A stretch of DNA of 64,000 nt. Origin: Promethearchaeia archaeon (lineage in GTDB: Archaea > Asgardarchaeota > Lokiarchaeia > Sigyniarchaeales > SOKP01). Shown in pieces: positions 18,192 through 37,359 of this stretch. The notes beneath the pieces are model-generated. The model saw only the letters and a list, made by a program, of their open reading frames with translations. It made no database searches and was not told where the DNA came from. The stretch's first letter is position 1, and the number at the start of each line of letters is the position of its first letter. The position numbers and the translations under genes are program-made. The DNA lies in contig JAHQWJ010000148.1 of NCBI GenBank assembly GCA_029856125.1, forward strand, positions 8,588-72,587. The letters are read 5' to 3'.

Positions 18192-18204
18192 TTTTTTTTT
18201 TTTT
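18192..18204 (+). terminator. Oligo-T tract (13 T), candidate archaeal-type terminator
   Basis: A run of 13 T begins 13 nt after the stop at 18179. Confidence 0.4.
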
Positions 18205-18215
18205 AATTTATTTCA

Positions 18216-18611: not shown

Positions 18612-18722
18612 TCACTTAAATCTTAGCGTAAAGAACTTAGTAAATTTTTCACATACATGACAATAATAGTAGCCTTCTTTTGAGCCACTAGCTTTTGTTC
18701 TACAATTAAGACAAAATATCAT
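18612..18722 (-). CDS. Unannotated 36-aa zinc-ribbon mini-protein (tentative)
   Basis: Hand translation: MIFCLNCRTKASGSKEGYYYCHVCEKFTKFFTLRFK, with a CxxC...CxxC pair. Confidence 0.3.
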   Translation of the reverse strand: MIFCLNCRTKASGSKEGYYYCHVCEKFTKFFTLRFK

Positions 18723-18912
18723 TTTAATCACTTATTAAAGCGCTCGATTCGTTTTAAAGCTTCAATTTATAAGATATAGGTGGATAATTGGCTTGATTAA
18801 TATTTAAAAATGTAAGGAATTTAAGGTAAAACTATATATTTTAAAGAATTTATAATAATTCTCAGATATATCATATTATTTTAATACCGAATTATAATAT
18901 CAAGTGTTATAT

Positions 18913-19947
18913 ATGGCAGCTGTGGAATACAAGGGCGAAAAATACGAAGTTAAAGACGGATTTTTAGACCTGGGCCTACTAGAAATTGAAGACATATCTG
19001 ATATTAAAGGATTAGATAAACTTGATATCAAACATTTAGAGCTGAGTTCCAACGAAATTATCGAAATACAAGGTTTAGAAGAGCTTCACAATTTAGAAAT
19101 TCTTAATTGTGGAAGTAATAACCTATCCAAGATATCTGGGTTGGAAGATTTAACAAATTTAGAAGTTCTACATCTAGCGTCTAATCAGATTACCGAAATT
19201 AAGGGACTTGATCAGTTATCTAATTTAAAAGAAATATATCTAAGAGCTAATCAAATAACTCACTTAAAAGGTTTAGATTCTTTAAAATCGCTTCAGAAAT
19301 TAGATTTGTCTTGGAATATGATTGAAAAAATCGAAGGATTCGATAGTTTGGAGAATTTAGAAGTTTTGTGGCTAGCAGGAAATCAGCTCACAACAATCCA
19401 AGGATTGGAAAAGTTGAAAAAATTAAAAGTTTTAAATTTAGCAGGAAACCAAATTTCTGAGATACAAGGACTTGATCATTTAAAAAATGTAAGTGAAATA
19501 TATCTTAACGATAATAAAATACAAGAAATCAAAGGTTTAGAGAATCTTACCGAATTAGACACGCTGTGGATAACAGCAAACCAAATTGAGAAAATCAACA
19601 ACCTTGATAAATGTAAAAACTTACAAGTTCTTAACTTGAAAGATAATAACATTGCTGAAATTAGTGGTTTATATCCGTTAACTAAATTAAATAAACTATT
19701 TTTATCTAGCAATATTATTTCGACGATTAAAGGATTAGAAACCCTCCAAAATTTAGAGACCTTAGATTTAGGGAATAATTATGTTAAAGCTATAAGAGGT
19801 TTAGAATCTTTAATGGTTTTGAAGGATTTGTGGCTTCAGGGAAATGAGATTGACGAAGAATTGCTAGCTCAATTAGGTGGATTGGATTCAGGTGGTTGTG
19901 CCTTAGAACCGTTAAAATTTGTGGAATATTGCCTTGTTAACTTATAG
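18913..19947 (+). CDS. Leucine-rich-repeat protein (SDS22-like 22-residue LRRs), LRR-only
   Basis: About 13 consecutive 'LxxLxxLxLxxNxIxxIxGLexL' units. I prefer the ATG at 18913 over the GTG at 18904. Confidence 0.8.
   Translation: MAAVEYKGEKYEVKDGFLDLGLLEIEDISDIKGLDKLDIKHLELSSNEIIEIQGLEELHNLEILNCGSNNLSKISGLEDLTNLEVLHLASNQITEIKGLDQLSNLKEIYLRANQITHLKGLDSLKSLQKLDLSWNMIEKIEGFDSLENLEVLWLAGNQLTTIQGLEKLKKLKVLNLAGNQISEIQGLDHLKNVSEIYLNDNKIQEIKGLENLTELDTLWITANQIEKINNLDKCKNLQVLNLKDNNIAEISGLYPLTKLNKLFLSSNIISTIKGLETLQNLETLDLGNNYVKAIRGLESLMVLKDLWLQGNEIDEELLAQLGGLDSGGCALEPLKFVEYCLVNL
19021..19860 (+). repeat. 66-nt periodic coding repeat (LRR units)
   Basis: The 'N.I..I.GL' core recurs every 22 codons. 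Confidence 0.7.
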
Positions 19948-19974
19948 ATAACTTGTTACAAAGAGAATTCGCCA

Positions 19975-20745
19975 TTATTCCAATATCTGATGAATATTAT
20001 CTTTTATTATTTGATAACTAGTTGATTTATCGGATATGTCGATTATTGGTTTACCTTCTAAATCAAATTCTGTTAAGATTTCATCCTCGGGAATCGAAGC
20101 AATCGCAGTTAGATCGTACTCTTTAAGCTTATCTGTGATTTTAGCAATATCTCCTTTAACTCTATTAATAATAACCCCGATTTTTCTGTAATTTGTAAAT
20201 TTTTTAGCACTTTGACTTATCGAATACGCCGTTTCTACGCTCCTAAGAGAAATATCTGTTACGATTATTACGTAATCTACAGATTTTATTACCATCCTAT
20301 TAATTTGTTCGAGACCGGCCTCACAATCAATCAATACGATATCAAAATCCTGTGAAATAGATTCAATAACTTTTCGTAGAAGAGCGTTGGAAGGGCAAAA
20401 GCAACCTGGCCCTTCAGGTTGACCAATTGAAAACAAGCTAAAATCTTTACTTTCCTTTATGGCGCTATAGACCTTAAAATCTATTGACTCTGCTATCGCT
20501 TGAATATTTTCCTTTTTACTAATTGTGTTATCAATTAGATCTGCTCTTATCTTTTCGAGACTTTCCTCCGGGACTAATTTAACCATTTTACTGAGGTGTG
20601 GATGGGTTGGATCCGCATCAATCAATAATAATTTAAACTTATAGGATGTAGAAATAGCTTTAGCAATAAGAGTAGTTATAATTGTTTTACCGACGCCTCC
20701 TTTTCCGGTGATAGCAATTATAAGCGGGGTTTTTTTCAGTTCCAT
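19975..20745 (-). CDS. CooC/AcsF-like MinD-family ATPase (putative metallocentre maturation factor)
   Basis: 256 aa with the deviant Walker A 'GKGGVGKT' and the CooC-type 'GPGCFCP' C-x-C motif. Confidence 0.7.
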   Translation of the reverse strand: MELKKTPLIIAITGKGGVGKTIITTLIAKAISTSYKFKLLLIDADPTHPHLSKMVKLVPEESLEKIRADLIDNTISKKENIQAIAESIDFKVYSAIKESKDFSLFSIGQPEGPGCFCPSNALLRKVIESISQDFDIVLIDCEAGLEQINRMVIKSVDYVIIVTDISLRSVETAYSISQSAKKFTNYRKIGVIINRVKGDIAKITDKLKEYDLTAIASIPEDEILTEFDLEGKPIIDISDKSTSYQIIKDNIHQILE

Positions 20746-23981: not shown

Positions 23982-25427
23982 ATGAATGAAACAATTGCTT
24001 TTACTGAAACTGAAGTAACAAGACATTCAAAAAAGACATTCCTTTCTAATGCTTCCAGTCTCCTTTGCTCTACTTTAATCGGTTCTATTCAAGGATTTAC
24101 ACTTGTCTATTATGAAACTGTTATTGGATTAAATGTGTGGTTAGTCTTTGTCGCCATGAGTATCTTTCTAGTATATAACGGAATTAACGACCCTATTTTT
24201 GGTTTTTTAATCGATCGGAATTTGAGATTTACGAGAAAATGGGGAAGACGATTTCCATGGATCGCCATAGGCATCATCCCTTGGGCCTTTTCTGTTTTCC
24301 TTCACTTCTCAGCCCCAATTATCGCTACTCCTGCTAATCCTTGGCCTGCTTTTTGGTGGTTATTATTAACATTAGTTTTACTCGACACCTTTGGCACCAT
24401 TGTGAATATTAATTACAAGGCACTTCAAATGGAAAAATTTCGGACGGAGTACGAGCGTAGAAGATTCACAAAATATTATGTACCTCTCGACATTGCAGCA
24501 ATGGTCCTCGGGATGTTATTACCTACCCTTTTCCTTGATAACGAGGCACCAAAAGCCATTCAATTAGCCAATTATTCTTTAATGGGAATAGTCGTCGCCA
24601 TAGTAGCTCTTCTTTTTGGTATTTTGTCTCTTTATGGTAACCGTGAGGATAAAATAATGATTGATCGGCATTTTTCACCCGAGTCTGTGAAGCGAATGAA
24701 TTTTTTTAAAGCCTTCAAAGAAGCTGTAAAATCGAAAACTTTCATGGTATATTTTATCTTTGGAACGTGTCTTGGAATTCAAATAAGCCTTGTAGTAGTA
24801 AATGTGTATTATCTAACGACTTATGTGTTAAATGCTGGTACCTTAACATATTTTCTTGTTTTAGGTTTATATCTCATAGGTACCTTGGTATCTATTCCTA
24901 TCTGGCTCAGGTATATCAAGAAAATAAATAATAACAAGAAGGCGCTAGTGGTTGCGGGTCTCGCATCGTGTGCTGCGTTATTTCCATTAACATTCTTTTA
25001 TGGACCTACTGATTTAATGATCATGGCATTCATTCTCGGACTCGCCCAAGGAGGCTTAAACTCATACGTATATACTATTATCGGTCCGAGCGTGACTGAG
25101 GATGTGATTGTTAAGATGGGGAGAAATCAAAAAGGAGTTCTCTTCGGGATTTCTGCGTTGCTTGGACGGCTTGTAGCATCTATTGACGAGTTAATTATTG
25201 CTGTCATTCATGATATTTCAGGATTCCTTCCCGGATATCCTTCTTATAAAGAATTGGCTGCCGTGGTTTTTGACATGACCCGTATTCAAATAGGAATCCG
25301 CCTTCTTCAGGGAGTCATTCCAGCGTATATTTTGCTCATAGGAATTCTGATTATCTGGTTGTATTTCCCTCTAACTCAAGAAAAGATATTAAGTAATAAA
25401 GCTAAGATGGAAGAACTCGGATTTTAA
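23982..25427 (+). CDS. Glycoside-pentoside-hexuronide (GPH):cation symporter-family MFS transporter
   Basis: 481 aa, about 12 helices, with a GPH-type loop 'NDPIFGFLIDR......WGRRFPW'. Confidence 0.7.
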   Translation: MNETIAFTETEVTRHSKKTFLSNASSLLCSTLIGSIQGFTLVYYETVIGLNVWLVFVAMSIFLVYNGINDPIFGFLIDRNLRFTRKWGRRFPWIAIGIIPWAFSVFLHFSAPIIATPANPWPAFWWLLLTLVLLDTFGTIVNINYKALQMEKFRTEYERRRFTKYYVPLDIAAMVLGMLLPTLFLDNEAPKAIQLANYSLMGIVVAIVALLFGILSLYGNREDKIMIDRHFSPESVKRMNFFKAFKEAVKSKTFMVYFIFGTCLGIQISLVVVNVYYLTTYVLNAGTLTYFLVLGLYLIGTLVSIPIWLRYIKKINNNKKALVVAGLASCAALFPLTFFYGPTDLMIMAFILGLAQGGLNSYVYTIIGPSVTEDVIVKMGRNQKGVLFGISALLGRLVASIDELIIAVIHDISGFLPGYPSYKELAAVVFDMTRIQIGIRLLQGVIPAYILLIGILIIWLYFPLTQEKILSNKAKMEELGF

Positions 25428-25440
25428 TAATTTAAAACTA

Positions 25441-25452
25441 TTTTTTTTTTTT
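25441..25452 (+). terminator. Oligo-T tract (12 T), candidate terminator
   Basis: The run begins 14 nt after the stop at 25427. Confidence 0.4.
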
Positions 25453-25551
25453 AATTTAAAAACTACATAATATTACAATAGAAGTAAAAAGAAAGCTCAA
25501 TTTTGTAAGAGTCTTACATTAAAAAGATTGTGAAGAATTTAAATGGATTAA

Positions 25552-26901
25552 GTGATTTGTATAACGAGTGAAGAAAACAAGCAAAAACATGGTAGAATCC
25601 AAGTGAGAAGAATTGGAAAACGAAATATTTTGTCTATTCTCTTCTTAGGAACCGCAGGACAAATAGCCTGGGTTGTTGAAAATAGCTGGTTTAATACATT
25701 TGTCTTCGATCGGATTACTACCGATCCAACACCCGTTGCGTTGATGGTAGCAGTAAGTGCTATAACTGCTACAATTACCACAATTATAATGGGTATTCTT
25801 AGCGATCGAACTTCTGGGAAATGGGGTAAAAGAAAACCATTCATTGTCTTTGGATATATTCTTTGGGGTATAATAACTGCAATCTATCCTATGGTCGAAT
25901 GGATTCAAACGATTGGGGTTGCTATTTTAATAGTAATCATAACCGATGCAGTCATGACCTTTTTTGGCTCAACCGCAAACGATGCTGCATACAATGCTTG
26001 GTTAACTGATATAGGACATTCGAGTAATCGTAATCGAATACAAAGTATTAATAATATAACTGTATATGTTGCAGCCATATCTTCACTTGTTCTAGCGGGA
26101 GTGATTATTGATATCTTCGGGTATTTCGTGTTTTTCTATATTTTAGGTGGAGTAGTAACTATTGCTGGTTTGATTGCTACGTTTTTAATTGAATCCACTC
26201 CAATAAAAAAAGAAGATATTAAATTTGAAAAATCTTTTCTTAAAGAATTTGCAGATCTCATAAATCCGAAAATTCTGAAAGAAAATCGGACTCTTTTTTT
26301 GCTGTTTCTTAGCATGGCTTTAGGAAGTATAGGAGCGAATGTCTACGGACCATACCTCTTTATATTCATGGAACATTACATTGGTTTCTCAAAAACGGAA
26401 CTAAGTATTTTTGGGGCGCTTTTCTTGCTTCTCACAGTAGTTATATTAGTTATTGCAGGGATCTATAGTCATCGAGTTAATCGCAAGACTTTAGTCATAA
26501 TTGGCTCAATCTTGGGGGCAATGCTAACGATTTTATTAGGGTTAACATCATTATTAGTTGGAGGAAATAGTTCTCTAGCAGTATTGACATTCCTCCTTTA
26601 TTTTGTGGCAACTATACCATCATTACTTTCTTCAGTTGCGTTTGGAGGGTGGCTTTTTGATAATTATCCTGAAGGAAATATTGGAAAATTTCAAGGTATC
26701 CGCATGATTTTCATGGTACTGATACCTATGGTGTTAGGACCTCCGATTGGATCGGCTATTATCAGCACATTCGGAATCCCTATAGCTGATGGATACATTC
26801 CTACACCCGAGATATTCATTTTTGGAGGACTAATTTCCTTGTTGTCAGTGATTCCAATATTTTTTATTAGTAAATCTGAAGGACAAATAAACCTTGATTA
26901 G
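25552..26901 (+). CDS. MFS/GPH-like transporter
   Basis: 449 aa, multi-helix, with 'GILSDRTSGKWGKRKPF'. The start codon is uncertain (GTG at 25552 or an internal GTG). Confidence 0.65.
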   Translation: MICITSEENKQKHGRIQVRRIGKRNILSILFLGTAGQIAWVVENSWFNTFVFDRITTDPTPVALMVAVSAITATITTIIMGILSDRTSGKWGKRKPFIVFGYILWGIITAIYPMVEWIQTIGVAILIVIITDAVMTFFGSTANDAAYNAWLTDIGHSSNRNRIQSINNITVYVAAISSLVLAGVIIDIFGYFVFFYILGGVVTIAGLIATFLIESTPIKKEDIKFEKSFLKEFADLINPKILKENRTLFLLFLSMALGSIGANVYGPYLFIFMEHYIGFSKTELSIFGALFLLLTVVILVIAGIYSHRVNRKTLVIIGSILGAMLTILLGLTSLLVGGNSSLAVLTFLLYFVATIPSLLSSVAFGGWLFDNYPEGNIGKFQGIRMIFMVLIPMVLGPPIGSAIISTFGIPIADGYIPTPEIFIFGGLISLLSVIPIFFISKSEGQINLD

Positions 26902-27100
26902 TTTTGGTGATTTATCAACACTTAAAAAAATTAAATCGTCATCTTATCTATTTATTTAGATTACGATTGATTCTTACTACCATCTCGCCCTTACCACGAT
27001 GGGCCCATGCGTAATAAGATATCGCTACAATATCTTTTTCAATTTGTTTCTTTTTGATTTCTTAAGATGTCATATTAAAAAAAAATTGAATCGACCTAAG

Positions 27101-27168
27101 AAGTAAATTTTTAACACTTCGAACCATATAATTTATTAATTTTTATTAGATATTAGCAAGGTAAAATT
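27101..27168 (+). promoter_or_regulatory. Conserved upstream region shared with the paralog at 29767-29834 (contains TATA-like 'AAATTTTTAA')
   Basis: By hand alignment, 39 of the first 49 positions are identical to 29767-29815. Confidence 0.35.
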
Positions 27169-28425
27169 ATGGGTAATAAAGAAGAAAATGAATCATCGTC
27201 CAAGAAGATTTTGAAAGAAACAAAAGAAAATGGCGAAATAGCCATGCGAGAGAAGGAAGCTAAAGTTAGAGGGCTTTACGTGAAGATGTTGGAAGATGCC
27301 GCGAAGTATGCAGTGCAGTATGAGTTCTACGCAGAGGACATGAAGGATTTCCACGAAGTAGTGCAATGGAAGTTCGGTCCTATCAGAGGATATCAAGTAT
27401 TCGACGAAACAGAGTATTCATTCAAAATCGACGAAGAGGCTGAAGATCCGACCTTAATACTGGGGTGCAAGGATCTTGATCTGGCCTACCAGTTCCTCAA
27501 CGACGAAATCAGTCATTGGCCGGCCCTTCTGGGGACTAAGTTCTTGGTTGGCACAAAGGGCCCCGACGGGACTTATAAGGAAAAGAGAATTGGAAAGTTA
27601 ACTGGTTTTGCCCCCGGCAATGCCCCTAGGTTGAGTACCGCAAAAGAGAATGCCCCCCCCGAGCAAAAAAGATTGTCTTCTCGTCTGTTGAGAATACCCG
27701 TGTTTCGGCCGATCATGGAGCGAACCACAGATCCCGAGAACTCGAACGACGTTCGCATTCCAATCAATGAGTCCTTGGGTACATATGAGAACCAGTCGAT
27801 ACCGCTCGCAGTTCTCGAATACTTCATAAACAAGGCAAGTGACGTCTATATCTTCAATATGTGCCCGTGTCGCTCGCTCGCCAATTGCGAGAATTATGAC
27901 CATTCCATCGGATGCATGGCCCTGGGTAAGGGGGCCCTGAGGATGAATACCTTTGGAAGGATCGGTACCAAAGAAGAGGCATTGGAACGATCGCGACGTG
28001 CTGTTGCTGCTGGTCTCCTGCCTTCTCTGGGGAGAGTCAAATCCGATACGATCGTCTATAGGGCTTTGCCTGAACAGGGCGATCTGATGCATATTTGCTT
28101 CTGTTGCCCCTGTTGCTGTGTCGAGGGCTCTGGAAAGGACTCGCCAAGGTATCTAAGGCTGTGGCATCAGAAGATGGAGGGTGTGTCCGTCACGGTCAAT
28201 GAGGATCTCTGTAATGGATGCGAGCTATGCCTCGAGGTGTGCATATACGGTGGAATGGAGGTCATCGACCACATAGCCGTGATTGACCGGGAGGGCAAGG
28301 ATCACTGCAGAGGCTGCGGAAGGTGCGAGAGGGTATGCCCCACTGGAGCGATAACCATCACCATCGAGGATGATGGTGTGGAGAGGATGATTGCTCGCAT
28401 AGAGTCCTCCGTCGACGTCAGCTAG
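27169..28425 (+). CDS. Cys-rich Fe-S protein ('CPCR', 'CFCCPCCC', C-terminal 2x[4Fe-4S] ferredoxin domain); G+C-rich mosaic copy
   Basis: 418 aa, co-linear with 29835-31007. Motifs: 'CNGCELCLEVC' and 'CRGCGRCERVCP'. The gene body is markedly richer in G+C than the rest of the window. Confidence 0.7.
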   Translation: MGNKEENESSSKKILKETKENGEIAMREKEAKVRGLYVKMLEDAAKYAVQYEFYAEDMKDFHEVVQWKFGPIRGYQVFDETEYSFKIDEEAEDPTLILGCKDLDLAYQFLNDEISHWPALLGTKFLVGTKGPDGTYKEKRIGKLTGFAPGNAPRLSTAKENAPPEQKRLSSRLLRIPVFRPIMERTTDPENSNDVRIPINESLGTYENQSIPLAVLEYFINKASDVYIFNMCPCRSLANCENYDHSIGCMALGKGALRMNTFGRIGTKEEALERSRRAVAAGLLPSLGRVKSDTIVYRALPEQGDLMHICFCCPCCCVEGSGKDSPRYLRLWHQKMEGVSVTVNEDLCNGCELCLEVCIYGGMEVIDHIAVIDREGKDHCRGCGRCERVCPTGAITITIEDDGVERMIARIESSVDVS

Positions 28426-28500
28426 GGGGATGCCAGGTTGTCATAAAGCATATAAATGCTATATATAATAGGAATAGTTTTTAAGAAAAATGATGTGAAT

Positions 28501-29631
28501 TTATGGTTCAAATTTTTCTACGATTTTGGAAACTTTCTTTAACCTTCTCCCATCTCCAATGCACAATTCGTCGCTTATTCCGAGGATTAGGTTTGGAGAA
28601 AATAAGTCAAGGACTTTTTTTGTCAGGTCTATTAATCTCGATTCTTTAAATTCTCGCAAGAATAAGGTAGCTGGAATTCCGTCGACGAGTATTTTTCCAG
28701 AATCCCCTAATGCTCTTGCAATATCTTCCAAAGGCACATCTCCTAGAGGTGGTGGGGTTAACGCCTCGTATCCGTCAAAAGACATCGTGGAGAGATAGGG
28801 TAATAACTGTTTGAAAGAACCATCAATGTGAATGAAGGCAAACTTCCTTGCGTCGTGTAGTAATTTAACGCGGGTTTCATAATAATCCAAGAGGTATTTT
28901 TCAAAATATGGCGGAGACGATAAATTATGATCAATATTTTCTCCAAAATTTACGAGTTTTAAAGGGGATTTTGTTATCACTCGTTTATACTTCTTTAGAT
29001 CAATGGATTCGAGATGGTGAAAGAAATCCTCCATTTCATGCTTGTATTTTCGTAAAAAGATTATCGTTCTTTCAAAGCCGAGATAATTAAGAACGCATTT
29101 CATGTAAGGACTTCGAAAATAATAGCTTGTTGGGATGCCAAAACCTTCCATTTCCTTTTTAGCTTTCTCGTACATGACATTTGAGAAATTAAATTCAGTT
29201 TGATCCTCGAGATACATCATTACTTTAAGATCCTTAATTTTTTTGACGGGAAAATCAATTATTCGAGTATCTTTTTCAACATGAGATACTTCCCCTACCG
29301 GTGTTATCATTTTTATAAGATATGTTTTGTAGTTCAATCGTTTCCTAATTGTTTTTATTTGGTGATTCGGTTTTCTAGTTTCGTGAAATAAAGGATAACC
29401 AAAAGTTTCTTGAGGATATCGAATTGAACCATTAATGTCCTTATAGATTTCCTTGATATTTTTTCCGATGTACTCTTTTGGCACATATTTTTCAACGGCA
29501 GGGTATTTTTCGGGAGTAAGTGATTGAATTCTATTACTATTATACCAATACATTATTCGAGGTTGCCATACAATCCCATCGATGGATTCGTGTGCGAATG
29601 TCCGCAAAATTAATTTGGCAAAATCAATCAC
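28501..29631 (-). CDS. Uroporphyrinogen-decarboxylase (URO-D/MtaA)-fold family protein, divergent
   Basis: 376 aa. The C-terminal half 'FIHIDGSFKQLLPYL....DGYEALTPPPLGDV.LEDI....G..ILVDGIPATLF' resembles URO-D-family barrels. No H-x-C zinc site was seen. Confidence 0.4.
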   Translation of the reverse strand: MIDFAKLILRTFAHESIDGIVWQPRIMYWYNSNRIQSLTPEKYPAVEKYVPKEYIGKNIKEIYKDINGSIRYPQETFGYPLFHETRKPNHQIKTIRKRLNYKTYLIKMITPVGEVSHVEKDTRIIDFPVKKIKDLKVMMYLEDQTEFNFSNVMYEKAKKEMEGFGIPTSYYFRSPYMKCVLNYLGFERTIIFLRKYKHEMEDFFHHLESIDLKKYKRVITKSPLKLVNFGENIDHNLSSPPYFEKYLLDYYETRVKLLHDARKFAFIHIDGSFKQLLPYLSTMSFDGYEALTPPPLGDVPLEDIARALGDSGKILVDGIPATLFLREFKESRLIDLTKKVLDLFSPNLILGISDELCIGDGRRLKKVSKIVEKFEP

Positions 29632-29766
29632 TTTAGCAAATTAGGACCGGATAGAATATAAAGTTACTTTATAAGGATACTGTATTTTTATTTTTGAACC
29701 TTTGATTTTCTGGAAATTATTCGCTCTAACTCAAGAAATCTTTTTGAAGTAAAACCAAGTCTGAAG

Positions 29767-29834
29767 AATTAAATTTATAATATTTCACCTCATATTATTT
29801 ATTAATTTTAATTAGGAAATATTAAAGTGGGAAA
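29767..29834 (+). promoter_or_regulatory. Conserved upstream region shared with 27101-27168 (TATA-like 'AAATTTATAA')
   Basis: See 27101-27168. Confidence 0.35.
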
Positions 29835-31007
29835 ATGGTAGAAAATAAAGCTGAAATTGAATCATTGTTTAAAAATATGCTAAAAGAAACTGAAAAAAAC
29901 GCTCCAAAAGACGCGATTTATCAGGAGGACATTAAAACTATCGGAACGCTTAAAGTCCAGTGGAAGATTTGTGGTATTTTGGGATATCAAATCTTCGAGC
30001 AAGATAAAGTCTCCTACAAATTTGGAGAAAAATTAGAAAAGCCAGATATATCGTTAGTTATTAGAGATAGCGAGATATCACTCACTTTCTTAAAGGGAGA
30101 ACTCTTTGAATTTGATTACGGCCCGGCTTATGGCGGTAATTTTAAAATCAATCAAACTATCGGATGGAAAGAGATTGAAAAAGAAACGGGTAAAAAAAAT
30201 GCTAGGATAAATAAACCTTTCCTGACAGCCCGATTTAACAAAGAAAAAGAATACCATCCTTATGTCTTATCAAAAATACCTATTTTTAGAAAACTTGTAA
30301 CACAACGAGTATCAGAAGATGATTTTGGAGCATTTATACCTATCAATAAAGCTCTTGGAACATATGAAAGTCAAATCATTCCTCTCAAGGTTTTTAAACA
30401 TTTTATTGATAAAGCGAGTAATATTGTCAAGATGAATGACTGTCCTTGTAGAACATACCATGAATGTAAAGATCACAATCGTGATCTAGGATGTATGCAC
30501 ATGGGTAATGATACGTTAAATTTCCCTTCACCCCATTTCAGGAGTAAAGTTATTTCGAAGGAGGAAGCCTTAGAACATGTTAGACTTTGCATTGAGGACG
30601 GTTTAATTCCATTACTCGGTAGAGTAATGGATGAAGCTGAGGGGTTTGGAGTTCCAGATACGGGACATTTCTTATCAATGTGTTTTTGCTGTCCTTGTTG
30701 CTGTATAGATGGTACTATCGTACAAAATGCCTCAAAAGGTCTAACTACGATTTTTAAAAGGATGGAGGGTATCACTGTGAAAGTTGACGAAGACCTTTGT
30801 GTTGGTTGTGAAGAATGTTTCGAGGTTTGTGTCTTTAATGGGATGGAAATGATTGATAACAAGGCTGTAGTGAACCAGGACAACTGCTTAGGCTGTGGCA
30901 GATGTGAAACCACTTGTCCTAACGAAGCCATCTCTATAACTATTACAGATCTTAGTTACGTTGATAATTTGATTAAAAAATTAGAAGCCCATGTTGATGT
31001 TACCTAA
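29835..31007 (+). CDS. Cys-rich Fe-S protein ('CPCR', 'CFCCPCCC', 2x[4Fe-4S] ferredoxin domain); AT-rich native copy
   Basis: 390 aa with 'CVGCEECFEVC' and 'CLGCGRCETTCP'. The N-terminal ~130 aa look SCP2-like ('KPDISLVIRDSEISLTFLKGEL'). Confidence 0.7.
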   Translation: MVENKAEIESLFKNMLKETEKNAPKDAIYQEDIKTIGTLKVQWKICGILGYQIFEQDKVSYKFGEKLEKPDISLVIRDSEISLTFLKGELFEFDYGPAYGGNFKINQTIGWKEIEKETGKKNARINKPFLTARFNKEKEYHPYVLSKIPIFRKLVTQRVSEDDFGAFIPINKALGTYESQIIPLKVFKHFIDKASNIVKMNDCPCRTYHECKDHNRDLGCMHMGNDTLNFPSPHFRSKVISKEEALEHVRLCIEDGLIPLLGRVMDEAEGFGVPDTGHFLSMCFCCPCCCIDGTIVQNASKGLTTIFKRMEGITVKVDEDLCVGCEECFEVCVFNGMEMIDNKAVVNQDNCLGCGRCETTCPNEAISITITDLSYVDNLIKKLEAHVDVT

Positions 31008-31161: not shown

Positions 31162-31584
31162 ATGATCTCAATTCAAAAAGGGGAGGATTTGCTCTCAATT
31201 TCCTTAAGCACCATCTTAAACCATAGGAAAGACGAGCCCGAATTTCAAAAACTTGTTATCGATTGGAACAAGAAGATTCTAATTGATATTGAAGATTTCT
31301 ATCCACTTGAAATTATATTTCATCGCAACGAGATTAAATTTAAAGTAAACGATATCGATAAAAAAGTAGATCTTAAAGTTAAAATGAACATTTACACCCT
31401 TTTAGATTTGGCTTACAGAAGACTAAACCCTGTAAAAGCCGTTTTTCAGCGTAAATTAAGATTTAAGGGATTGTTGAAATTTAGAATTTTATTAAAATTT
31501 ATGAACATTTTTCTGAAAAGCATGCAAATGGTTGCTTCAGACCCTAACAATAAATATTACGAATTAAATAAAGATATTAGGTAA
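31162..31584 (+). CDS. SCP2 (sterol-carrier-protein-2)-like small protein
   Basis: 140 aa with 'VDLKVKMNIYTLLDLAYRRLNPVKAVFQRKLRFKGLL', which fits the SCP2 pattern. Paralog of 34273-34695. Confidence 0.5.
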   Translation: MISIQKGEDLLSISLSTILNHRKDEPEFQKLVIDWNKKILIDIEDFYPLEIIFHRNEIKFKVNDIDKKVDLKVKMNIYTLLDLAYRRLNPVKAVFQRKLRFKGLLKFRILLKFMNIFLKSMQMVASDPNNKYYELNKDIR

Positions 31585-31602
31585 AATGGTGAAAGAAAAC
31601 AT

Positions 31603-33078
31603 ATGACTGCAACAAAGGAAAGAAATTTGTACGAGAAAATAAGGAAGGAGAATGTGTTTAAAAAATTAGGAGAAATATTTGGAAGTAAAAACGTCACAGA
31701 TAAATCTGTAGATTTATATCCTTACTCATACGATATGACCGAATGCGAAGCACACATGCCTGATTTTGTAGTTATTCCTGAAAATTCAGCTCAATTAATC
31801 GAACTAGTAAAATTTTGTAATCAAAATTCCATACCAATTGTACCTTACATATCTGGGAATAACGTTGGAGGTTTGACAATTCCAGAATACGGGGGTGTTG
31901 TCGTCGATTTTAGTAAGAAAATGAACAGAATTCTCCACATCAATGAAAATATGATGTATGCTCTCTTAGAGCCAGGAGTTACCTTCGGAGAATTAAAGAA
32001 ACAGTTAGACGAACATTATCCACATCTAAGATATAGTTACCCATTTGCTCCACCTTACGCAGGAGTGGTTGGAAATGTAATTTTGAGCGGTATGAATAAT
32101 CTTTCGTGTAAACTTGGTTCAATGGGAGATTCTATCAATGGACTAGAAGTTATAACTGCTGATGGCGAACTTATTCGAATTGGTTCTTGCTTTTATGGTA
32201 AGGATACCGCAGATGATGATTCTTGGTGGAGCAGATATCCGATGCCAGATTTAATGGGTTTATTTATCAATTGGCAAGGTATGACGGGTTTAGTAACCAA
32301 ATGCGCCGTACAGTTATGGCCAAATCCCCCTCTTAAGAAAACCTATCTTGGAATTGTTTTCGGCTTACCTGATATCGCACCGGTCATAAGAGAAGTTGGG
32401 AGGACTGAAATTGTTGATGACATTTCAGCAGTAAGTATTGAAGTTGTAAAAATGGCTGTAGAACTTCCAGAACCGGTAAAAATACCTGGTGAACCAGATT
32501 TTGCTGCACTTTTTTCTATTTCTGGGAAAACTGAAAGCCTTTTCAAAGCTAAGGAGGAATATTTAAAGCTAACTATAGAAAATTTGAAGAAAAAGGGCAT
32601 AAAAGTTCTTTTAGTTGATGCTGACGAGTTTACAAAGTTATTCAGTTTAAGAGTAAGATGCCATTTAGATCTACCAGCAGTCATTTTATCGTTAGTAGAA
32701 TATTCGGGGTTAACATGGTTTGGATCCTATGCTCCAACACATAAACTCGAAGATTTAATACCTCAAGTGAACGACCTGTTTATAAAATACAAAGTTCCTC
32801 CATTTATTTACATGAAAATAATGAAGCATTCTCATTATGGAATTTTTCGACCTATCCTTAGATATAATAAATACAAAGATGAGGAAAACATTCATAGCTT
32901 ACTAAACGAGATTGCAGAACTATGCATCGCCGAGGGCTGTATTCCTTATAAGACGCCTGCGTGGATGACGGAAAAAATGCGTGAGATAATCAATCCAGGT
33001 TGGCAAAAATTATTCGACAAAATTAAAAATTGCATTGATCCAAATAAAATATTTAATCCCGGAAGATGGAATACATGA
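31603..33078 (+). CDS. FAD-linked oxidase (PCMH/GlcD-type)
   Basis: 491 aa with 'FVVIPENSAQLIELVKFCNQNSIPIVPYISGNNVGG' and C-terminal 'IDPNKIFNPGRW'. Close paralog of 34706-36181. Confidence 0.75.
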   Translation: MTATKERNLYEKIRKENVFKKLGEIFGSKNVTDKSVDLYPYSYDMTECEAHMPDFVVIPENSAQLIELVKFCNQNSIPIVPYISGNNVGGLTIPEYGGVVVDFSKKMNRILHINENMMYALLEPGVTFGELKKQLDEHYPHLRYSYPFAPPYAGVVGNVILSGMNNLSCKLGSMGDSINGLEVITADGELIRIGSCFYGKDTADDDSWWSRYPMPDLMGLFINWQGMTGLVTKCAVQLWPNPPLKKTYLGIVFGLPDIAPVIREVGRTEIVDDISAVSIEVVKMAVELPEPVKIPGEPDFAALFSISGKTESLFKAKEEYLKLTIENLKKKGIKVLLVDADEFTKLFSLRVRCHLDLPAVILSLVEYSGLTWFGSYAPTHKLEDLIPQVNDLFIKYKVPPFIYMKIMKHSHYGIFRPILRYNKYKDEENIHSLLNEIAELCIAEGCIPYKTPAWMTEKMREIINPGWQKLFDKIKNCIDPNKIFNPGRWNT

Positions 33079-33138: not shown

Positions 33139-34170
33139 ATGATCGAAACAAATATAACAAAAATGTTTGGGATTAAACATCCTATATTTAGCGCTCCAAT
33201 GGGTCCCTTTTTTACCCGCGATTTAGCTCTAGCTGTCAGTGAAGCCGGGGGATTAGGAGTGTTATCAAACGTGAATATAGCTGGTACAGATCCCGTTAAG
33301 GAACATAAAGCAAGCCTTGAACACATGATTGAACATACTGATAAACCGTTCGGTCTTAATATCCTAACATCTCGGAATAATCCTGGAGTGAGACAAATGG
33401 TCAGATCATTACCAAGAATAGTCATGGGTAATGTAAAAATGCGCGATCAGTGTAAATATTGGCTGACTTCGGCAGGTTCTTCAAGAGTTCTCGCAGAATC
33501 GAAAAGTTTTATAGAATTAAGAGAGAATTCAGAAGTTAAACACTTTCACGTTGCTCCAGCTGTATGGTTGGCTCAGAAATGTATAGCTTCAAAAGTAGAT
33601 GGAATAGTGGTGACTGGTACTGAAGGTGGAGGTCATCAATCGTATGAGAGAGTTAGTACTCTTGTTCTACTACAACAGATTAATGAGAAATTCCCTGATT
33701 TGCCAAAGATTGCTTGTGGGGGTTTTGCTACTGGAGAGTCTTTAGCTGCAGCACTTTCGTTAGGTGCAGGAGCAGTAGCAATGGGATCAAGATTTATAGC
33801 TTCTAAGCAGAGCGAATTTCACGAAAAATACAAAGCGTTAATTCCCCCTGGAAATCCGCAAGATACAGGGCTCTATACTGGATCGTTCGGTCCTATTCGG
33901 TTGTATAAAAACGAATACGCATTATCGCATCCTGCGCCCAGTAGTAAAGAGGAAATGATCGCTTACGAAAACTCTATATCTCCAGAACAAAGAGCAAAAG
34001 ATATGGGTGCCTATGATAGGGTATACAATGGGGATATTAATACTGGAGCTGTTTTACTAGGTCAATCAATAGGAATTATTGATAGTATAGAGAATGTCAA
34101 TGATATTATTGAACGAATAATGAAAAACGCTGAAACTGCTATTAGAAGAAATAGTTCCATGTTAAAATAA
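33139..34170 (+). CDS. Nitronate monooxygenase / FabK-like FMN enoyl reductase family protein
   Basis: 343 aa with 'MFGIKHPIFSAPMGPF..DLALAVSEAGGLGVLS' and 'GTEGGGH'. Confidence 0.75.
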   Translation: MIETNITKMFGIKHPIFSAPMGPFFTRDLALAVSEAGGLGVLSNVNIAGTDPVKEHKASLEHMIEHTDKPFGLNILTSRNNPGVRQMVRSLPRIVMGNVKMRDQCKYWLTSAGSSRVLAESKSFIELRENSEVKHFHVAPAVWLAQKCIASKVDGIVVTGTEGGGHQSYERVSTLVLLQQINEKFPDLPKIACGGFATGESLAAALSLGAGAVAMGSRFIASKQSEFHEKYKALIPPGNPQDTGLYTGSFGPIRLYKNEYALSHPAPSSKEEMIAYENSISPEQRAKDMGAYDRVYNGDINTGAVLLGQSIGIIDSIENVNDIIERIMKNAETAIRRNSSMLK

Positions 34171-34272
34171 GACCAAATCTAAACTAAAAATAACCAATTT
34201 ATTCCTTTTTTTATAAATTGGGCAAAAGGTTAATTTGTTTTTAAAAAAAAAAACTAATATAAGTGAATTAAT

Positions 34273-34695
34273 ATGCTTAATATAGAATTCCCGGATGATT
34301 TAATTTCTATATCGTTGTATAATGTTTTCAGTTCGAGGAAGGACGATAGAAAATTTATAAAACACGCGAAAGATTGGAATACAAAAATAGTACTTCATAT
34401 CGAGCCTTTCTATCCCGTGACAGTAATCTTCGACGGTAGTAATATAAGGTTTGAAAGGAAAGAATATCCAAAACCAGACATGAAGGTTAAAATTCATATC
34501 AACACCATGCTTGATATCGCTAACGATAGGTTAAATCCTTTTTTTGCTATTGAAGAAAAAAAAATGGAAATTGAAGGATTAGGTGAAGATAGCGAAAAAA
34601 TTATGCGGTTTTTCAATATTTTTGTCTTATCTATGCAGATGGTAGCTCAAGAGCCTAATGTGAATTATTTTGAATTAAACAAGAATACCAGGTGA
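34273..34695 (+). CDS. SCP2-like small protein
   Basis: 140 aa, co-linear with 31162-31584 ('KPDMKVKIHINTMLDIANDRLNPFFAIEEKKMEIEGL'). Confidence 0.5.
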   Translation: MLNIEFPDDLISISLYNVFSSRKDDRKFIKHAKDWNTKIVLHIEPFYPVTVIFDGSNIRFERKEYPKPDMKVKIHINTMLDIANDRLNPFFAIEEKKMEIEGLGEDSEKIMRFFNIFVLSMQMVAQEPNVNYFELNKNTR

Positions 34696-34705
34696 TATAA
34701 CTCTA

Positions 34706-36181
34706 ATGACAGCAACAAAACAACGAAATGTGTTTGAAAAAATTTCAAAAGATAATGTTTATTCTAAATTAGTCGAGATTTTTGGTAGCGATTATGTTAC
34801 TGATAAAAATGTTGACTTGTACCCCTATTCTCAAGATATGACTGAGAACAAACCTCACATGCCCGATTTTGTGGTTATCCCTGAAAATAAAGAGCAATTA
34901 GTGGAACTAGTTAAGTTTTGTAACGAATATTCAGTTCCATTAGTTCCCTATACCACGGGAAATAATGTTGGAGGGCTTACAATCCCTGATTATGGCGGTA
35001 TTATTGTAGATTTTGGAAAAAGGATGAATAAAATCTTACATGTAGATGACAATATGATGTACGCCCTCTTAGAACCCGGTGTTACCTTTGGTCAACTTAA
35101 GAAACACCTAGATGAGAATTTCCCAAGTCTAAGATATAGCTACCCAAACGCGCCCCCTTACTCAGGTGTAGTTGGAAACGCCTTATTAAGCGGCATGACA
35201 AATTTGGGTGCAAAAATCGGCTCAATGGCAGATGGCATTAATGGTCTTGAGGTTATAACCTTTGATGGAACTGTATCTCGAATTGGATCGTGCTTCTACG
35301 GAAATGATAAATCAGAAGACGATAGCTGGTGGTGTAGATATCCGATGCCTGACCTTATGGGATTATTCGTCAATTGGCAAGGCATGACCGGCTTGATAAG
35401 CAAATGCGCCGTTCAATTATGGCCAAAAGAACCAATTGAAAAACCTCAGCTCGTTGTCTTTTTTGGGTTAACAGATTTAGGTCCTTTTTTGAGAGAGGTA
35501 GGTAGAGCAGATATTGTTAACGATGTTGCTGCATTTTCAGTGGAGGTTGCTAAAATGGAGGTTGGAATACCAGAACCCGTAAGATATCCTGGAGAACCTC
35601 TTTATACTGCCGTAATGCCGATGACGGCAAAAACTGAAAACCAAATGAATGCCAAATTAGAAATTCTTAACGATATAATTGAAAAGCTAAATAAAGAAGG
35701 AACTGATATTCATTTAATTGATTATAACGAGTTTGCTAAGCTTTTTGGTCTAAAAGCTCTCAATATTTACAACTTACCATCACAGATTCTTTCCTTACAC
35801 GAATATAGCGGACTTACGTGGTTTGGCGCCTATGCTCCCTCTCATAAATTTGAAGAATTAATTGAGAAAACAGATGCGTTGTATCATAAACATGGGGTAC
35901 CCCCGTTTAACTATCTTAAGATTATGAAAGGAGGTCATTATGGTATATTTAGACCTATCTTTCGGTTTAAGAAATTTACAGATCAAGACAAAATCGTTAA
36001 GTTATTGGAAGAAATAGCTGATGTTTGTATAGACTTAGGGTGTATACCTTATAAAACGCCATCGTGGTTGACTGCAAAATTGCGTAAGAAAATCAATCCA
36101 GGATGGATTAGTCTTTTTGAAAAGATAAAACATTGTATGGATCCTAATAATATATTTAATCCAGGAAGGTGGAACACATAA
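34706..36181 (+). CDS. FAD-linked oxidase (PCMH/GlcD-type)
   Basis: 491 aa, same length as and co-linear with 31603-33078. Confidence 0.75.
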   Translation: MTATKQRNVFEKISKDNVYSKLVEIFGSDYVTDKNVDLYPYSQDMTENKPHMPDFVVIPENKEQLVELVKFCNEYSVPLVPYTTGNNVGGLTIPDYGGIIVDFGKRMNKILHVDDNMMYALLEPGVTFGQLKKHLDENFPSLRYSYPNAPPYSGVVGNALLSGMTNLGAKIGSMADGINGLEVITFDGTVSRIGSCFYGNDKSEDDSWWCRYPMPDLMGLFVNWQGMTGLISKCAVQLWPKEPIEKPQLVVFFGLTDLGPFLREVGRADIVNDVAAFSVEVAKMEVGIPEPVRYPGEPLYTAVMPMTAKTENQMNAKLEILNDIIEKLNKEGTDIHLIDYNEFAKLFGLKALNIYNLPSQILSLHEYSGLTWFGAYAPSHKFEELIEKTDALYHKHGVPPFNYLKIMKGGHYGIFRPIFRFKKFTDQDKIVKLLEEIADVCIDLGCIPYKTPSWLTAKLRKKINPGWISLFEKIKHCMDPNNIFNPGRWNT

Positions 36182-37359
36182 TGGTTGAAATTAAAGAAGA
36201 TTTAATGGGAAAAGAAGTTTTGGAAATGGCATTTGATCGTTGTATCAAGTGCAGTACTTGTAAATATAGCTACAAGGATTTCGAAAAAATGTGCCCAAGT
36301 GGAGAAAAATTCCTATTCGAATCGTATTGGGCATCAGGCCGAATCAGAATAATACGAGGTGTTTTAAATGGCGATCTGGAGTGGACGGAGGATTTACTAG
36401 ATCCTATTTTTGCTTGTACAACTTGTGGCGCTTGTATGGACGCTTGTCAGGCACCCCACGCGGATTATATTGTCGAGATGATAGAAGCCCTAAGAGAATT
36501 AGCTGTAAAAAACATTGGACCAGCGGAAAACCAAAAATTCTTAGTTACCCGATGCGAAGACAGTTGTAATCCTTACGGCGATCCAAACTCAGATAACGCA
36601 GAGTTGAAAAAAGAGTACGACCTACCGGATAAAGCCGAATGGGTCTATTTTATAGGATGTACCTCAAACTACCGTCAAAAAAGCCTAAGAGATTCTACTC
36701 TGAGGTTTTTGAAAAAAGCGGGTATTGATTTTACATTAATAGACGAACATTGTTGTACAAGCCCTATGATTAGAACTGGTCAATTGAGCATTGTTGATGA
36801 ATATATGAAATATAATATCGATCAAATAAAAAAGGCTGGTGCGACTAAAGTAATCACCTCATGCGCAGGATGTTATAAAACTTTATCGAAAGATTTCGAG
36901 AGGTTTGTAAACGCATTAGAATTTGAAATCTACCATTCGCTCGAATTAGTGAAGAACCTCTTAGACGAGAAAAAGATAGAGTTTAAATTTGAATATAATA
37001 AAACCGTTACCTACCACGATCCGTGCCATTTAGGAAGACACATGGGGGTCTATGAGTTACCAAGAGAGATTTACAAACAGATACCCGGATTAAATTTAGT
37101 AGAAATGAAAAGAAATCGAAATTTTGCGTGGTGTTGTGGTGCAGGCGGCGGAGTGAAAATTGGTTATCCTGATTGGGCGTTAGAGGTTTCTAAAGATCGC
37201 TTAGAAGAAGCACAGGAAACCGGAGCAACGGTTATAACATCAACATGTCCATTCTGTAAAACTAACTTAAGCGACGCTAACGATAATTATAACTTTGATT
37301 TTGAAGTACTTGACCTAATGGAAATCATAGATCAATTGGATATTGAAATTGAGAAGTAA
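36181..37359 (+). CDS. (Fe-S)-binding CCG-domain oxidoreductase, GlcF/HdrD-like
   Basis: 'CIKCSTCKY...CP', 'CTTCGACMDAC', 'CCTS' and 'CCGAGGG'. The ATG at 36181 overlaps the upstream TAA (TAATG). Homolog of 10090-11349. Confidence 0.75.
   Translation: MVEIKEDLMGKEVLEMAFDRCIKCSTCKYSYKDFEKMCPSGEKFLFESYWASGRIRIIRGVLNGDLEWTEDLLDPIFACTTCGACMDACQAPHADYIVEMIEALRELAVKNIGPAENQKFLVTRCEDSCNPYGDPNSDNAELKKEYDLPDKAEWVYFIGCTSNYRQKSLRDSTLRFLKKAGIDFTLIDEHCCTSPMIRTGQLSIVDEYMKYNIDQIKKAGATKVITSCAGCYKTLSKDFERFVNALEFEIYHSLELVKNLLDEKKIEFKFEYNKTVTYHDPCHLGRHMGVYELPREIYKQIPGLNLVEMKRNRNFAWCCGAGGGVKIGYPDWALEVSKDRLEEAQETGATVITSTCPFCKTNLSDANDNYNFDFEVLDLMEIIDQLDIEIEK

Follow-up and report, generated by a model that had tools for sequence, protein, structure and literature searches.

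The replacement of a resident gene by a distant, horizontally acquired homolog at the gene's own locus, with the neighbourhood left intact, is known as xenologous displacement in situ; Omelchenko et al. reportedly described it in 2003 in connection with 'mosaic operons'. For acquired genes of atypical composition, Lawrence and Ochman are said to have put forward an amelioration model in 1997. The gene analyzed here bears on both. It occupies positions 27169-28425 of a 64-kb stretch of contig JAHQWJ010000148.1 from a Promethearchaeia archaeon (the whole stretch is referred to below as the window), where it forms a G+C-rich island in A+T-rich DNA, upstream from an intact low-G+C paralog designated PARA. 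Our analysis suggests that the island gene is of bacterial type and that it replaced the body of a second resident copy of the paralog, designated PARA'. PMC1274311 and PMC4455057 cite displacement in situ as a concept, and bacteria-to-Asgard transfers have been documented, for example for thymidylate and folate enzymes (PMC9931769). Literature searches returned no paper on this gene or island.

The locus resembles the known cases of displacement in situ in that relics of the paralog flank the incoming open reading frame (ORF) and in that the gene order, from a transporter of the major facilitator superfamily (MFS) to an oxidase of the flavin adenine dinucleotide (FAD) type, is conserved. It differs from them in that the exchange would be intragenic and in frame, joining 21 resident codons to a complete foreign ORF that keeps its own methionine codon while the resident promoter is retained. 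Furthermore, the replaced gene would have been one of two tandem paralogs, its original function not necessarily being lost, and the transfer was apparently inter-domain, from a bacterium to an Asgard archaeon. The island gene is functional, as indicated by purifying selection, and the intact paralog remains next door. Like ameliorating acquired genes, the island shows atypical G+C content and G+C content at third codon positions (GC3), sharp edges, and substitutions directed toward the host composition at host-like rates. Unlike typical ameliorating islands, it consists of a single gene, lacks any tRNA, integrase or direct-repeat signature, occurs in many lineages that have diverged from one another and has a composition that remains a long way from equilibrium. 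With the cases of PMC9931769 it has in common that an Asgard metabolic gene has its closest non-Asgard relatives in bacteria; however, those cases are based on phylogeny, whereas in the present case the DNA itself displays the junctions, the recipient gene and the compositional decay. The locus is a well-resolved new example of a known process, xenologous displacement in situ with capture of a promoter and an N-terminus, rather than a new type of system.

The window, 34.5% G+C overall, was scanned in 1200-bp segments. These have a mean G+C content of 0.345 with a standard deviation of 0.031; the maximum, 0.512 in the segment starting at 27251, lies about 5.4 standard deviations above the mean and is the strongest compositional outlier in the window. 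The island ORF (418 amino acids) has a G+C content of 0.50 and a GC3 of 0.582, while in all other ORFs of at least 150 amino acids in the window, save an antisense ORF within the island, GC3 ranges from 0.19 to 0.37. A maximum likelihood (ML) fit with two change points set the edges of the island at 27232 (support 27221-27298) and 28437 (support 28428-28452), that is, 12 nucleotides before an internal ATG at 27244 and 12 nucleotides past the stop codon, with a G+C content of 0.515 inside and 0.331 outside. Codons 1 to 25 of the ORF (27169-27243) are 32% G+C; the part from 27244 to 28425 has a G+C content of 0.512. An initial annotation, made from the letters alone, had noticed this jump in composition and had placed its limits near the internal ATG and just past the stop codon, and both points were borne out. 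Its hand counts of single 60-nucleotide lines proved exact (0.567 at 27481-27540 and 0.533 at 28141-28200 in the island, 0.333 at 29881-29940 in the paralog and 0.383 at 28561-28620 in the neighboring gene), and the two contrasting codon strings that it quoted were located at 28201 (island) and 30789 (paralog). The island is therefore real and far beyond chance, and shows the atypical composition and codon usage, within defined boundaries, of a horizontally acquired gene. The parts of the island and its paralog are as follows.

27098-27162, plus strand: paralog-type, promoter-proximal region upstream of the island gene; a 65-nucleotide direct repeat of 29764-29828, 75% identical
27169-27231, plus strand: first 21 codons (MGNKEENESSSKKILKETKEN), A+T-rich (32% G+C), apparently from the resident paralog PARA' as judged by similarity to the paralog
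27232-27243, plus strand: putative donor-derived leader GGC GAA ATA GCC, 5' end of the foreign segment, set by the ML G+C change point at 27232
27244-28425, plus strand: putative foreign ORF of bacterial type, 393 codons plus stop (composition, alignment to PARA, phylogeny, Pfam Fer4, AlphaFold, Foldseek, ratio of nonsynonymous to synonymous divergence)
28426-28443, plus strand: 18-nucleotide G+C-rich tail (GGGGATGCCAGGTTGTCA), 3' junction region (post-stop nucleotides shared with orthologs, change point at 28437)
29764-31007, plus strand: resident low-G+C paralog PARA (390 amino acids, coding sequence 29835-31007) with its upstream region; intact, 39% identical to the island protein

At the 5' end, the upstream repeat is in register with a repeat in the coding region. 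The region upstream of the island gene also matches the upstream regions of PARA orthologs in eight related contigs (L011, L012, L013, L018, L022, L023, L033 and L039), the homology between island and PARA spanning about 140 nucleotides and including a relic of the 3' end of an MFS transporter gene, MFS1. We infer that the interval 27098-27162 acts as an archaeal promoter. Around the start codon, 'tat tag caa ggt aaa att ATG' of the island aligns with 'tat taa agt ggg aaa ATG' of PARA. The 21-codon segment resembles residues 3 to 22 of the paralog with a score of 50, as against 21.6 ± 4.0 for shuffled sequences; when the whole 25-residue extension was compared with the paralog N-terminus, 13 of 14 orthologs scored 41-69 (shuffles 21 ± 4, p ≤ 0.001) and the fourteenth, L023, scored 35 (p = 0.0125). 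No similarity was found between the extension and the island protein's own core N-terminus. In orthologs where it is less decayed, the extension reads, for example, (M/L)GNKEEVESFFKKMSKETDQNGEVA or MAKKEELESLFKKMEKETEENGEVA, and PARA starts with MVENKAEIESLFKNMLKETEKN. These results uphold the proposal of the initial annotation that the first 24 or so codons, A+T-rich and paralog-like, were kept together with the host promoter region.

The BLASTP alignment of the two proteins begins at M26 of the island protein and M1 of PARA, which indicates that the foreign ORF is complete from its own methionine at 27244. The last four codons of the extension, just upstream of this ATG, are not paralog-like but match the leaders of bacterial homologs. 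They read GGC GGA GTA GCC in most Lokiarchaeial copies and GCC GGA GTA GCC in the bacterial copy L019; in bacterial L047, 'gga gga gcc', with the canonical GGAGG, stands right before the ATG. The leader is thus probably a relic of the donor ribosome-binding site. The 5' junction at about 27232 coincides with the change point in composition and falls in a stretch rich in purines (A-C/T-R GAA GAR A); paralog and donor-type leader resemble each other over this stretch, which looks like a microhomology. The M26 codon has been lost in L013, L020, L022, L024 and L039, where it is changed to ATA, ACG or a leucine codon, so translation in these genomes must use the paralog-derived upstream start. The same upstream start is presumably used in the window genome itself.

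About 18 nucleotides after the stop codon are shared by many orthologs, including those of L011, L012, L013, L033 and L039, and appear to be a remnant of the foreign 3' flank, of the replaced paralog, or of both. In L013 this tail runs in the same frame directly into ADARLSVGCGEALDVCVFLGMEMIDDKAVVNQDNCLGCGRCESTCPNEAISITITDLSYVDKLIKELEAHVDVT*, the last 74 codons of a PARA-type protein in which the cluster cysteines are already mutated. The fragment is 81-83% identical in DNA sequence to the PARA 3' ends of L013 and of the window, while those two PARA genes are 91% alike. Because it is less similar to them than they are to each other, the fragment must stem from an old, separate copy of the paralog, PARA', and not from a recent duplicate. 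The structure at the locus would thus consist of the PARA' promoter and 21 codons, the foreign leader, ORF and stop codon with some 10-18 nucleotides, and the PARA' 3' end. Such an arrangement would place the incoming gene at the exact locus of a resident homolog within a conserved neighborhood, as displacement in situ implies, and it supports the view, already taken in the initial annotation, that the body of a resident paralog was replaced.

A longer G+C-rich tail of about 55 nucleotides (ggggatgccaggttgtcggcgggttcatgtctcatcgcgggactccgagaagtg) follows the island stop codon in L011 (L011:11210-11290) and, at the same position, in L012, L026, L027, L033 and L039; in L011, L012, L027 and L039 it leads into a T-run. 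The window keeps only 18 nucleotides of it. Beyond these first 18 nucleotides, the tail could be a terminator or a further relic of the paralog.

The BLASTP and phylogenetic comparisons with the paralog place the island protein far from PARA. Identity to PARA is 39% over the full length and, to other low-G+C paralogs of Lokiarchaeia, 35-40%. By contrast, the protein is 45-56% identical to a clade that includes proteins of Dehalococcoidales and Deltaproteobacteria and 64-75% identical to further proteins. Among the nearest relatives, L019 lies on a 237-kb contig of a metagenome-assembled genome (MAG) deposited as a delta proteobacterium (75% identity; flanks 0.60 G+C), L040 and L043 are 81-84% identical over the part present (flanks 0.61-0.66 G+C), L047 is 66% identical (flanks 0.65 G+C) and L048 is 70% identical (flanks about 0.5 G+C). 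L051 belongs to a Dehalococcoidales genome, according to its protein label, and has an upstream flank of 0.59 G+C. The host of L048 appears to be bacterial as well, since a fucosidase encoded next to the homolog is closest to fucosidases of Abyssobacteria and Chloroflexi. Bootstrapped neighbour-joining trees were built from the proteins and from the codons. In these, the Lokiarchaeial island clade groups with L019, L040 and L043 (bootstrap 94-96); L047 is the next outgroup (96-99), followed in order by L048/P0039, P0041/P0042 and the Dehalococcoidales clade. The island clade thus appears nested among sequences from mid- to high-G+C contigs (flanks of 50-66% G+C), two of which, L048 and L051, carry evidence of a bacterial host. 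On this evidence the gene phylogeny is incongruent with the host lineage, the closest outgroups lying elsewhere, and the foreign origin from a higher-G+C source that had been proposed from composition gains support. An amino acid bias test on the stem branch separating the Lokiarchaeial copies from L019, L040 and L043 gave seven gains and three losses of FYMINK residues, a split that does not point clearly to either direction of transfer. Co-transfer of the upstream MFS gene was considered and rejected, as the MFS protein encoded upstream of the L048 homolog is only 22% identical to that of the window (MFS2).

A frameshift divides the copy in L019 (L019:9013-11213) into ORFs 9983-10990 and 10905-11213; the copy directly follows a truncated paralog of 230 amino acids that lacks the N-terminal domain. 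The split copy is either a pseudogene or the product of a long-read sequencing error.

The fate of the island's G+C content was examined by polarizing synonymous third-position changes on trees, with codon alignments for the flanking genes and for 31 distinct island orthologs from Lokiarchaeia. In the island, 274 changes went from GC to AT and 102 from AT to GC (binomial p = 3e-19). The corresponding ratios in the flanking controls were 66:98 for PARA and 64:55 for MFS2, and the contrast in direction between island and flanks is significant (p = 4e-12). Per-site rates of GC-to-AT (S>W) and AT-to-GC (W>S) change were the same as in the flanks: 0.048/0.027 in the island, 0.042/0.024 in PARA and 0.054/0.023 in MFS2. 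The projected equilibrium GC3 of the island is 0.36, as against its present 0.58 and 0.27-0.37 for the flanks. In triplets with independent outgroups, an S>W excess was seen in 12 of 12 cases, with a total of 348:138. The equal per-site rates together with the GC-to-AT excess indicate that the island is under the ordinary mutation regime of the host: nothing maintains its G+C content, amelioration is in progress, and the substitutions are directed toward the host composition, as in a transferred gene. At the same time, the ratio of nonsynonymous to synonymous divergence (dN/dS) between the island and its orthologs is 0.12-0.24 and the Fe-S cysteines are invariant or nearly so (at least 90%) across 48 family members, from which it follows that the protein is under purifying selection and that the gene is functional.

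Orthologs were sought in one genome per species and in a metagenome scan. Those found in genome contigs labelled Promethearchaeota, Promethearchaeia or Hodarchaeota (Lokiarchaeia-type) are 77-94% identical in amino acid sequence, and the metagenome scan added about 25 more. The island was confirmed in nine labelled genome contigs (L011-L018 and L020) and in about 20 metagenome contigs with low-G+C flanks. Every ortholog locus with such flanks is an island, with a gene G+C content of 0.45-0.57 and a GC3 of 0.47-0.68 between flanks of 0.30-0.37 (0.41 in one short flank). The initial annotation had held that close relatives sharing the gene's composition would speak against transfer; instead, the gene stands out as an island in every one of these relatives, whose genomes are A+T-rich. 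MFS2, island, PARA, SCP2 protein and FAD oxidase follow one another in a conserved order, the step from MFS2 to the island being kept in L011, L012, L013, L016, L018 and L029. Synonymous divergence (dS) from the window copy spans 0.2-0.8 among the orthologs. It was 0.24 for the L011 island, as against 0.28-0.52 for its neighbors, 0.20 against 0.26-0.52 in L012, and 0.58 against 0.52 in L016. Since the dS of the island is about that of its neighbors, the island must already have been present when these lineages split. The event is old and common to many lineages, and the tacit expectation of a recent, strain-specific event, which the initial annotation carried, does not stand: more than 30 contigs of related Lokiarchaeia carry a syntenic G+C-rich island. 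The block from MFS2 through the island to PARA (23982-31007 in the window) shows a dS of 0.33-0.66 in L018 and L039, whereas the genes on either side range from 0.95 to saturated. That the block is so much less diverged than the genes on both sides suggests that it was later exchanged among Lokiarchaeial lineages by recombination.

The contig L013 (JBHLJZ010000055.1) was deposited as 'Candidatus Hodarchaeota', and its genes show 69-90% identity to those of the Promethearchaeota-type window. Its label or its binning may be wrong.

Composition and boundaries, independent assemblies and synteny, nesting among homologs in bacterial contexts, the GC-to-AT excess and the homology to the paralog on both sides of the island lead us to the following reading, to which we give a probability of roughly 0.8: a bacterial-type gene recombined in frame into the resident paralog PARA', kept its promoter and 21 codons, and is old and ameliorating. 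The incoming DNA would have been a bacterial-type fragment of about 1.2 kb with one complete gene, a 5' leader of about 12 nucleotides representing the donor ribosome-binding site, and some 10-18 nucleotides of 3' flank. Following uptake of this short fragment, illegitimate recombination, possibly guided by microhomology, would have inserted it into PARA', one of two resident paralogs arranged in tandem downstream of MFS transporter genes, replacing approximately codons 22 to 315. The archaeal promoter, the start codon and the first 21 codons of PARA' would have been kept in frame, allowing an N-terminally extended fusion to be expressed; capture of the paralog in this way could solve the problem that a bacterial promoter does not function in an archaeon. 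The useless 3' end of PARA' would then have decayed, leaving 74 codons in L013 and 18 nucleotides in the window. This single event would have preceded the divergence of the Lokiarchaeial lineages that carry the gene, which was thereafter inherited and in part exchanged by recombination. Purifying selection would have kept the protein while the ordinary mutation bias of the host eroded its synonymous sites toward A+T. The central proposal of the initial annotation, a xenolog replacing the body of a resident paralog in frame, is thus sustained, with correction only as to recency and strain specificity.

Several points weigh against this reading and are considered here with the alternatives on which they bear. 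About half of the Lokiarchaeial orthologs (L014, L015, L016, L028, L031, L032, L035 and L041 among them) do not have the paralog-type extension in its long form; they begin with a leader of 8 codons, MEERGGVA, which is donor-like and comparable to the MDEKAGVA of bacterial L019. The two 5' forms are interleaved in the tree, so that more than one order of 5' events is conceivable, and the long 3' relic of the paralog is found in a single genome, L013, whose locus is rearranged. The foreign gene could thus have arrived as a free-standing unit with its 8-codon leader beside the paralog, and only later have gained the paralog promoter and 21 codons by conversion or unequal recombination; it fits this course of events that the regions upstream of the 8-codon forms are not obviously PARA-like. 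We regard it as unlikely, though a live alternative. The 140 or so nucleotides of upstream homology to PARA, with the relic of the MFS1 3' end, indicate that the island sits on a former paralog site, and the paralog 3' end lying in frame right after the island stop codon in L013 points the same way. Moreover, in the 8-codon forms the upstream frame has stop codons and yet retains a faint similarity (..LFK..SKNSEEMEERGGVA) to the long extension (..LFKKMSKETEENGEVA), suggesting a decayed long form. We tend to read the two 5' forms as descending from an ancestral gene with both starts in frame, which decayed differently in different lineages.

A second set of points concerns the direction of transfer. 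The trees are neighbour-joining trees only, and the wider family is unrooted. Monophyly of the Lokiarchaeial copies with respect to the trio L019, L040 and L043 is poorly supported (bootstrap 17-45), which leaves room for a back-transfer from Lokiarchaeia to bacteria or for two acquisitions. Furthermore, the gene is poorer in G+C than its surroundings in the G+C-rich hosts examined: 0.54 against 0.60 in L019 (L019:10001-11210), 0.56 against 0.66 in L040 (L040:1697-2515), 0.52 against 0.65 in L047 (L047:8001-9092), and 0.46 against 0.59 for the upstream flank in L051 (L051:8001-9137), where the downstream flank (0.47) holds a tandem paralog. Because the gene is compositionally atypical there, no sampled genome is a convincing native donor and none could be named, and the gene seems to have changed hosts repeatedly, across wide differences in composition. 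The flank of L048 points to Abyssobacteria- or Chloroflexi-like bacteria, and L019 belongs to a MAG deposited as a delta proteobacterium. It is conceivable that the transfer ran in reverse, the clade being native either to Asgard archaea or to an archaeon of intermediate G+C content that has not been sampled, with bacteria as recipients. In keeping with this, Lokiarchaeia show a great expansion of the family, L015 and L016 having 5-6 tandem paralogs, and the copies of L019, L040 and L043 share the 8-codon leader and about 14 nucleotides of 3' flank with the Lokiarchaeial copies. Reversal is nonetheless quite improbable. The successive outgroups, from L047 through L048/P0039 and P0041/P0042 to the Dehalococcoidales clade, are all found on contigs whose G+C content is intermediate or high, with a bacterial host indicated for L048 by its flanking gene and for L051 by its protein label. 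The island protein is closer to the copies in bacterial contexts (49-75%) than to the low-G+C paralogs of Lokiarchaeia, and a native Lokiarchaeial gene would not have a GC3 of 0.6.

It could also be argued that the high G+C content does not betray transfer at all but is actively maintained, whether through codon usage selected for expression, through overlap with a structured RNA or an antisense function, or through GC-biased gene conversion. Parsimony is known to introduce bias into polarization, although the control genes went through the same procedure; a high GC3 persists in more than 30 lineages, and the gene clade stays at about 46-56% G+C in hosts of 33% and 65% G+C alike. The polarized counts nevertheless led us to reject selection or biased conversion as an explanation, and we hold this alternative to be very improbable. 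Besides the direction of substitution, seen in every triplet, the flank-like per-site rates and the low projected equilibrium, the spread of GC3 among lineages (0.47-0.68) is what decay predicts, the boundaries of the island coincide with the homology junctions, and no Rfam match was found. Finally, a sharp 1.2-kb compositional block in a metagenome-type genome might have suggested a chimera of assembly or binning, or else an insertion that is very recent and confined to one strain. Both can be dismissed, as the exact 418-residue protein occurs in identical context on 13 contigs assembled independently, with different assemblers, from different samples (JGI and ENA metagenomes), in addition to the more than 30 orthologous islands at a dS of 0.2-0.8.

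The island gene encodes a protein predicted to have three parts: an SCP2-like N-terminal domain, a Cys-rich central domain and a C-terminal ferredoxin domain with two [4Fe-4S] clusters. Pfam and NCBIfam detect only the last of these, in agreement with sequence and profile searches of the PDB. Its scores (PF00037, 42.8 bits against a cut-off of 21.1; PF12837, 41.7 bits against 25), its two CxxCxxCxxxC(P) motifs and eight cysteines that are invariant or nearly so point to a 4Fe-4S dicluster domain of the Fer4 clan. An AlphaFold2 model built from the 48-sequence family alignment has a mean pLDDT of 87.3 and a pTM of 0.83. In Foldseek searches of the PDB, its N-terminal domain matches the SCP2 protein AF1534 (3bn8; probability 1.00, target-normalized TM-score 0.62, E = 0.014) as well as SCP2 domains of alkylsulfatases and UbiJ, and its C-terminal domain matches ferredoxin modules. 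The protein is thus similar to SCP2 proteins at one end and to the ferredoxin modules of HdrA and FwdF at the other. It differs from proteins of these types in that Pfam SCP2 is not detected from its sequence, in that the central domain of about 170 residues, with conserved motifs CPCR-x4-C...GC and CxCCPCCC, finds no match in Pfam, NCBIfam, PDB sequence and profile or Foldseek searches, and in that the three-domain architecture is uncharacterized. The names given to the protein in databases, 'UDP-glucose 4-epimerase' (JGI) and 'DUF362' (NCBI), look like annotation carry-over; neither family was found in the Pfam and NCBIfam scans. The protein may be a redox protein that handles a hydrophobic ligand and passes electrons via its clusters. 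The neighborhood encodes stand-alone SCP2 proteins, GlcD-like FAD oxidases, an NMO-type flavoprotein and an HdrD/GlcF-like CCG protein. Lokiarchaeia show a strong expansion of the family of SCP2-like/Cys-rich/ferredoxin proteins, with five to six low-G+C paralogs in and around tandem arrays at L015:2346-4802 and 17009-20722 and at L016:6924-8078 and 11955-18102.

PARA itself has a G+C content of 0.355 and a GC3 of 0.294, and its orthologs in L011, L012, L013 and L018 are 89-92% identical. The other features near the island are these.

23982-25427, plus strand: MFS transporter gene MFS2, the conserved upstream anchor of synteny, its order kept in relatives
25552-26901, plus strand: MFS transporter gene MFS1, between MFS2 and the island; presence varies among genomes
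28501-29631, minus strand: lineage-specific ORF of 350-376 amino acids (28501-29553 as 350 amino acids), between the island and PARA
29683-29738, plus strand: relic of the 3' end of an MFS transporter gene, upstream of PARA; 71% identical over 56 nucleotides to 25328-25383

MFS1 is present in L030 (89% identity), reduced to a relic of 55 amino acids in L011 and absent from the other related loci. Window positions 29703-29752 match the MFS2 3' ends of L013, L016, L018 and L039 at 80-84%, and the presence of such relics of MFS 3' ends upstream of PARA suggests that PARA' and PARA arose by tandem duplication of a unit composed of an MFS gene and the paralog. The ORF on the minus strand (28501-29553) has no homolog at any related locus and belongs to no Pfam or NCBIfam family. 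In L011, L012 and L018 the island is followed directly by PARA, without this ORF, which appears to have been inserted after the island in the window lineage, removing the rest of the island's 3' tail. Downstream of PARA, a module made of an SCP2 protein and a GlcD-like FAD oxidase is duplicated (31162-33078 and about 34270-36181); the NMO-type flavoprotein gene (33139-34170) lies between the two copies, and the gene for an HdrD/GlcF/TfrB-like CCG iron-sulfur protein (36181-37359) follows.

No integrase or transposase was found among the genes called within 10 kb of the island, nor any bracketing repeats, in accordance with what the initial annotation had reported; there was likewise no tRNA, and no copies of the island gene were found in IMG/VR viral contigs or PLSDB plasmids. 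A mobile-element vector was rejected on these grounds. Mobility signatures are typical of genomic islands but are not required for the transfer of a single gene.

The small G+C-rich patch and the palindrome ATGGGCCCAT at 26999-27008, to which attention had been drawn, do exist. The patch (26975-27012) is 38 nucleotides long and 58% G+C, and ATGGGCCCAT is an ApaI site. The window contains 82 perfect 10-nucleotide palindromes, 7 of them with at least six G or C. The patch sits in a segment of about 145 nucleotides (26931-27073) that is without counterpart in the homologous PARA upstream regions of other genomes, and no match to it was found beyond the same species. The Rfam search covered the island and nearby DNA, including this patch, at E ≤ 1. 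A structured RNA in or near the island was therefore rejected, the patch being conserved only within the species and palindromes of this length being common; palindrome and patch are unremarkable. Elsewhere in the window, the ORF at 44952-45515 (minus strand) has the lowest G+C content (0.239; GC3 0.19) and lies in an A+T-rich trough at 44-46 kb.

No known prokaryotes are more closely related to eukaryotes than the Asgard archaea, and both the amount of bacterial DNA taken up by these organisms and the ways in which bacterial genes become expressible in an archaeon bear on models of eukaryogenesis. Most claimed bacteria-to-Asgard transfers are based on trees; here, the recipient gene, both junctions, the captured start codon with its putative archaeal promoter, the decaying relic of the paralog and the ongoing shift in composition are all visible. 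The 75-84% amino acid identity of the nearest bacterial copies, with the shared leader and 3' flank, could also mean that these copies are back-transfers, and one might speculate on an ongoing two-way traffic of genes between Lokiarchaeia and co-occurring, possibly syntrophic bacteria. We think this doubtful; if true, it would be a rare case in which transfers of one gene from archaeon to bacterium and from bacterium to archaeon can both be read from the junctions. The three-domain family to which the island protein belongs is uncharacterized and mis-annotated in public databases. For Lokiarchaeial genomes, the island provides a calibrated example of slow G+C amelioration, and it documents one route by which a bacterial ORF can obtain archaeal expression signals, namely in-frame integration into a resident paralog.

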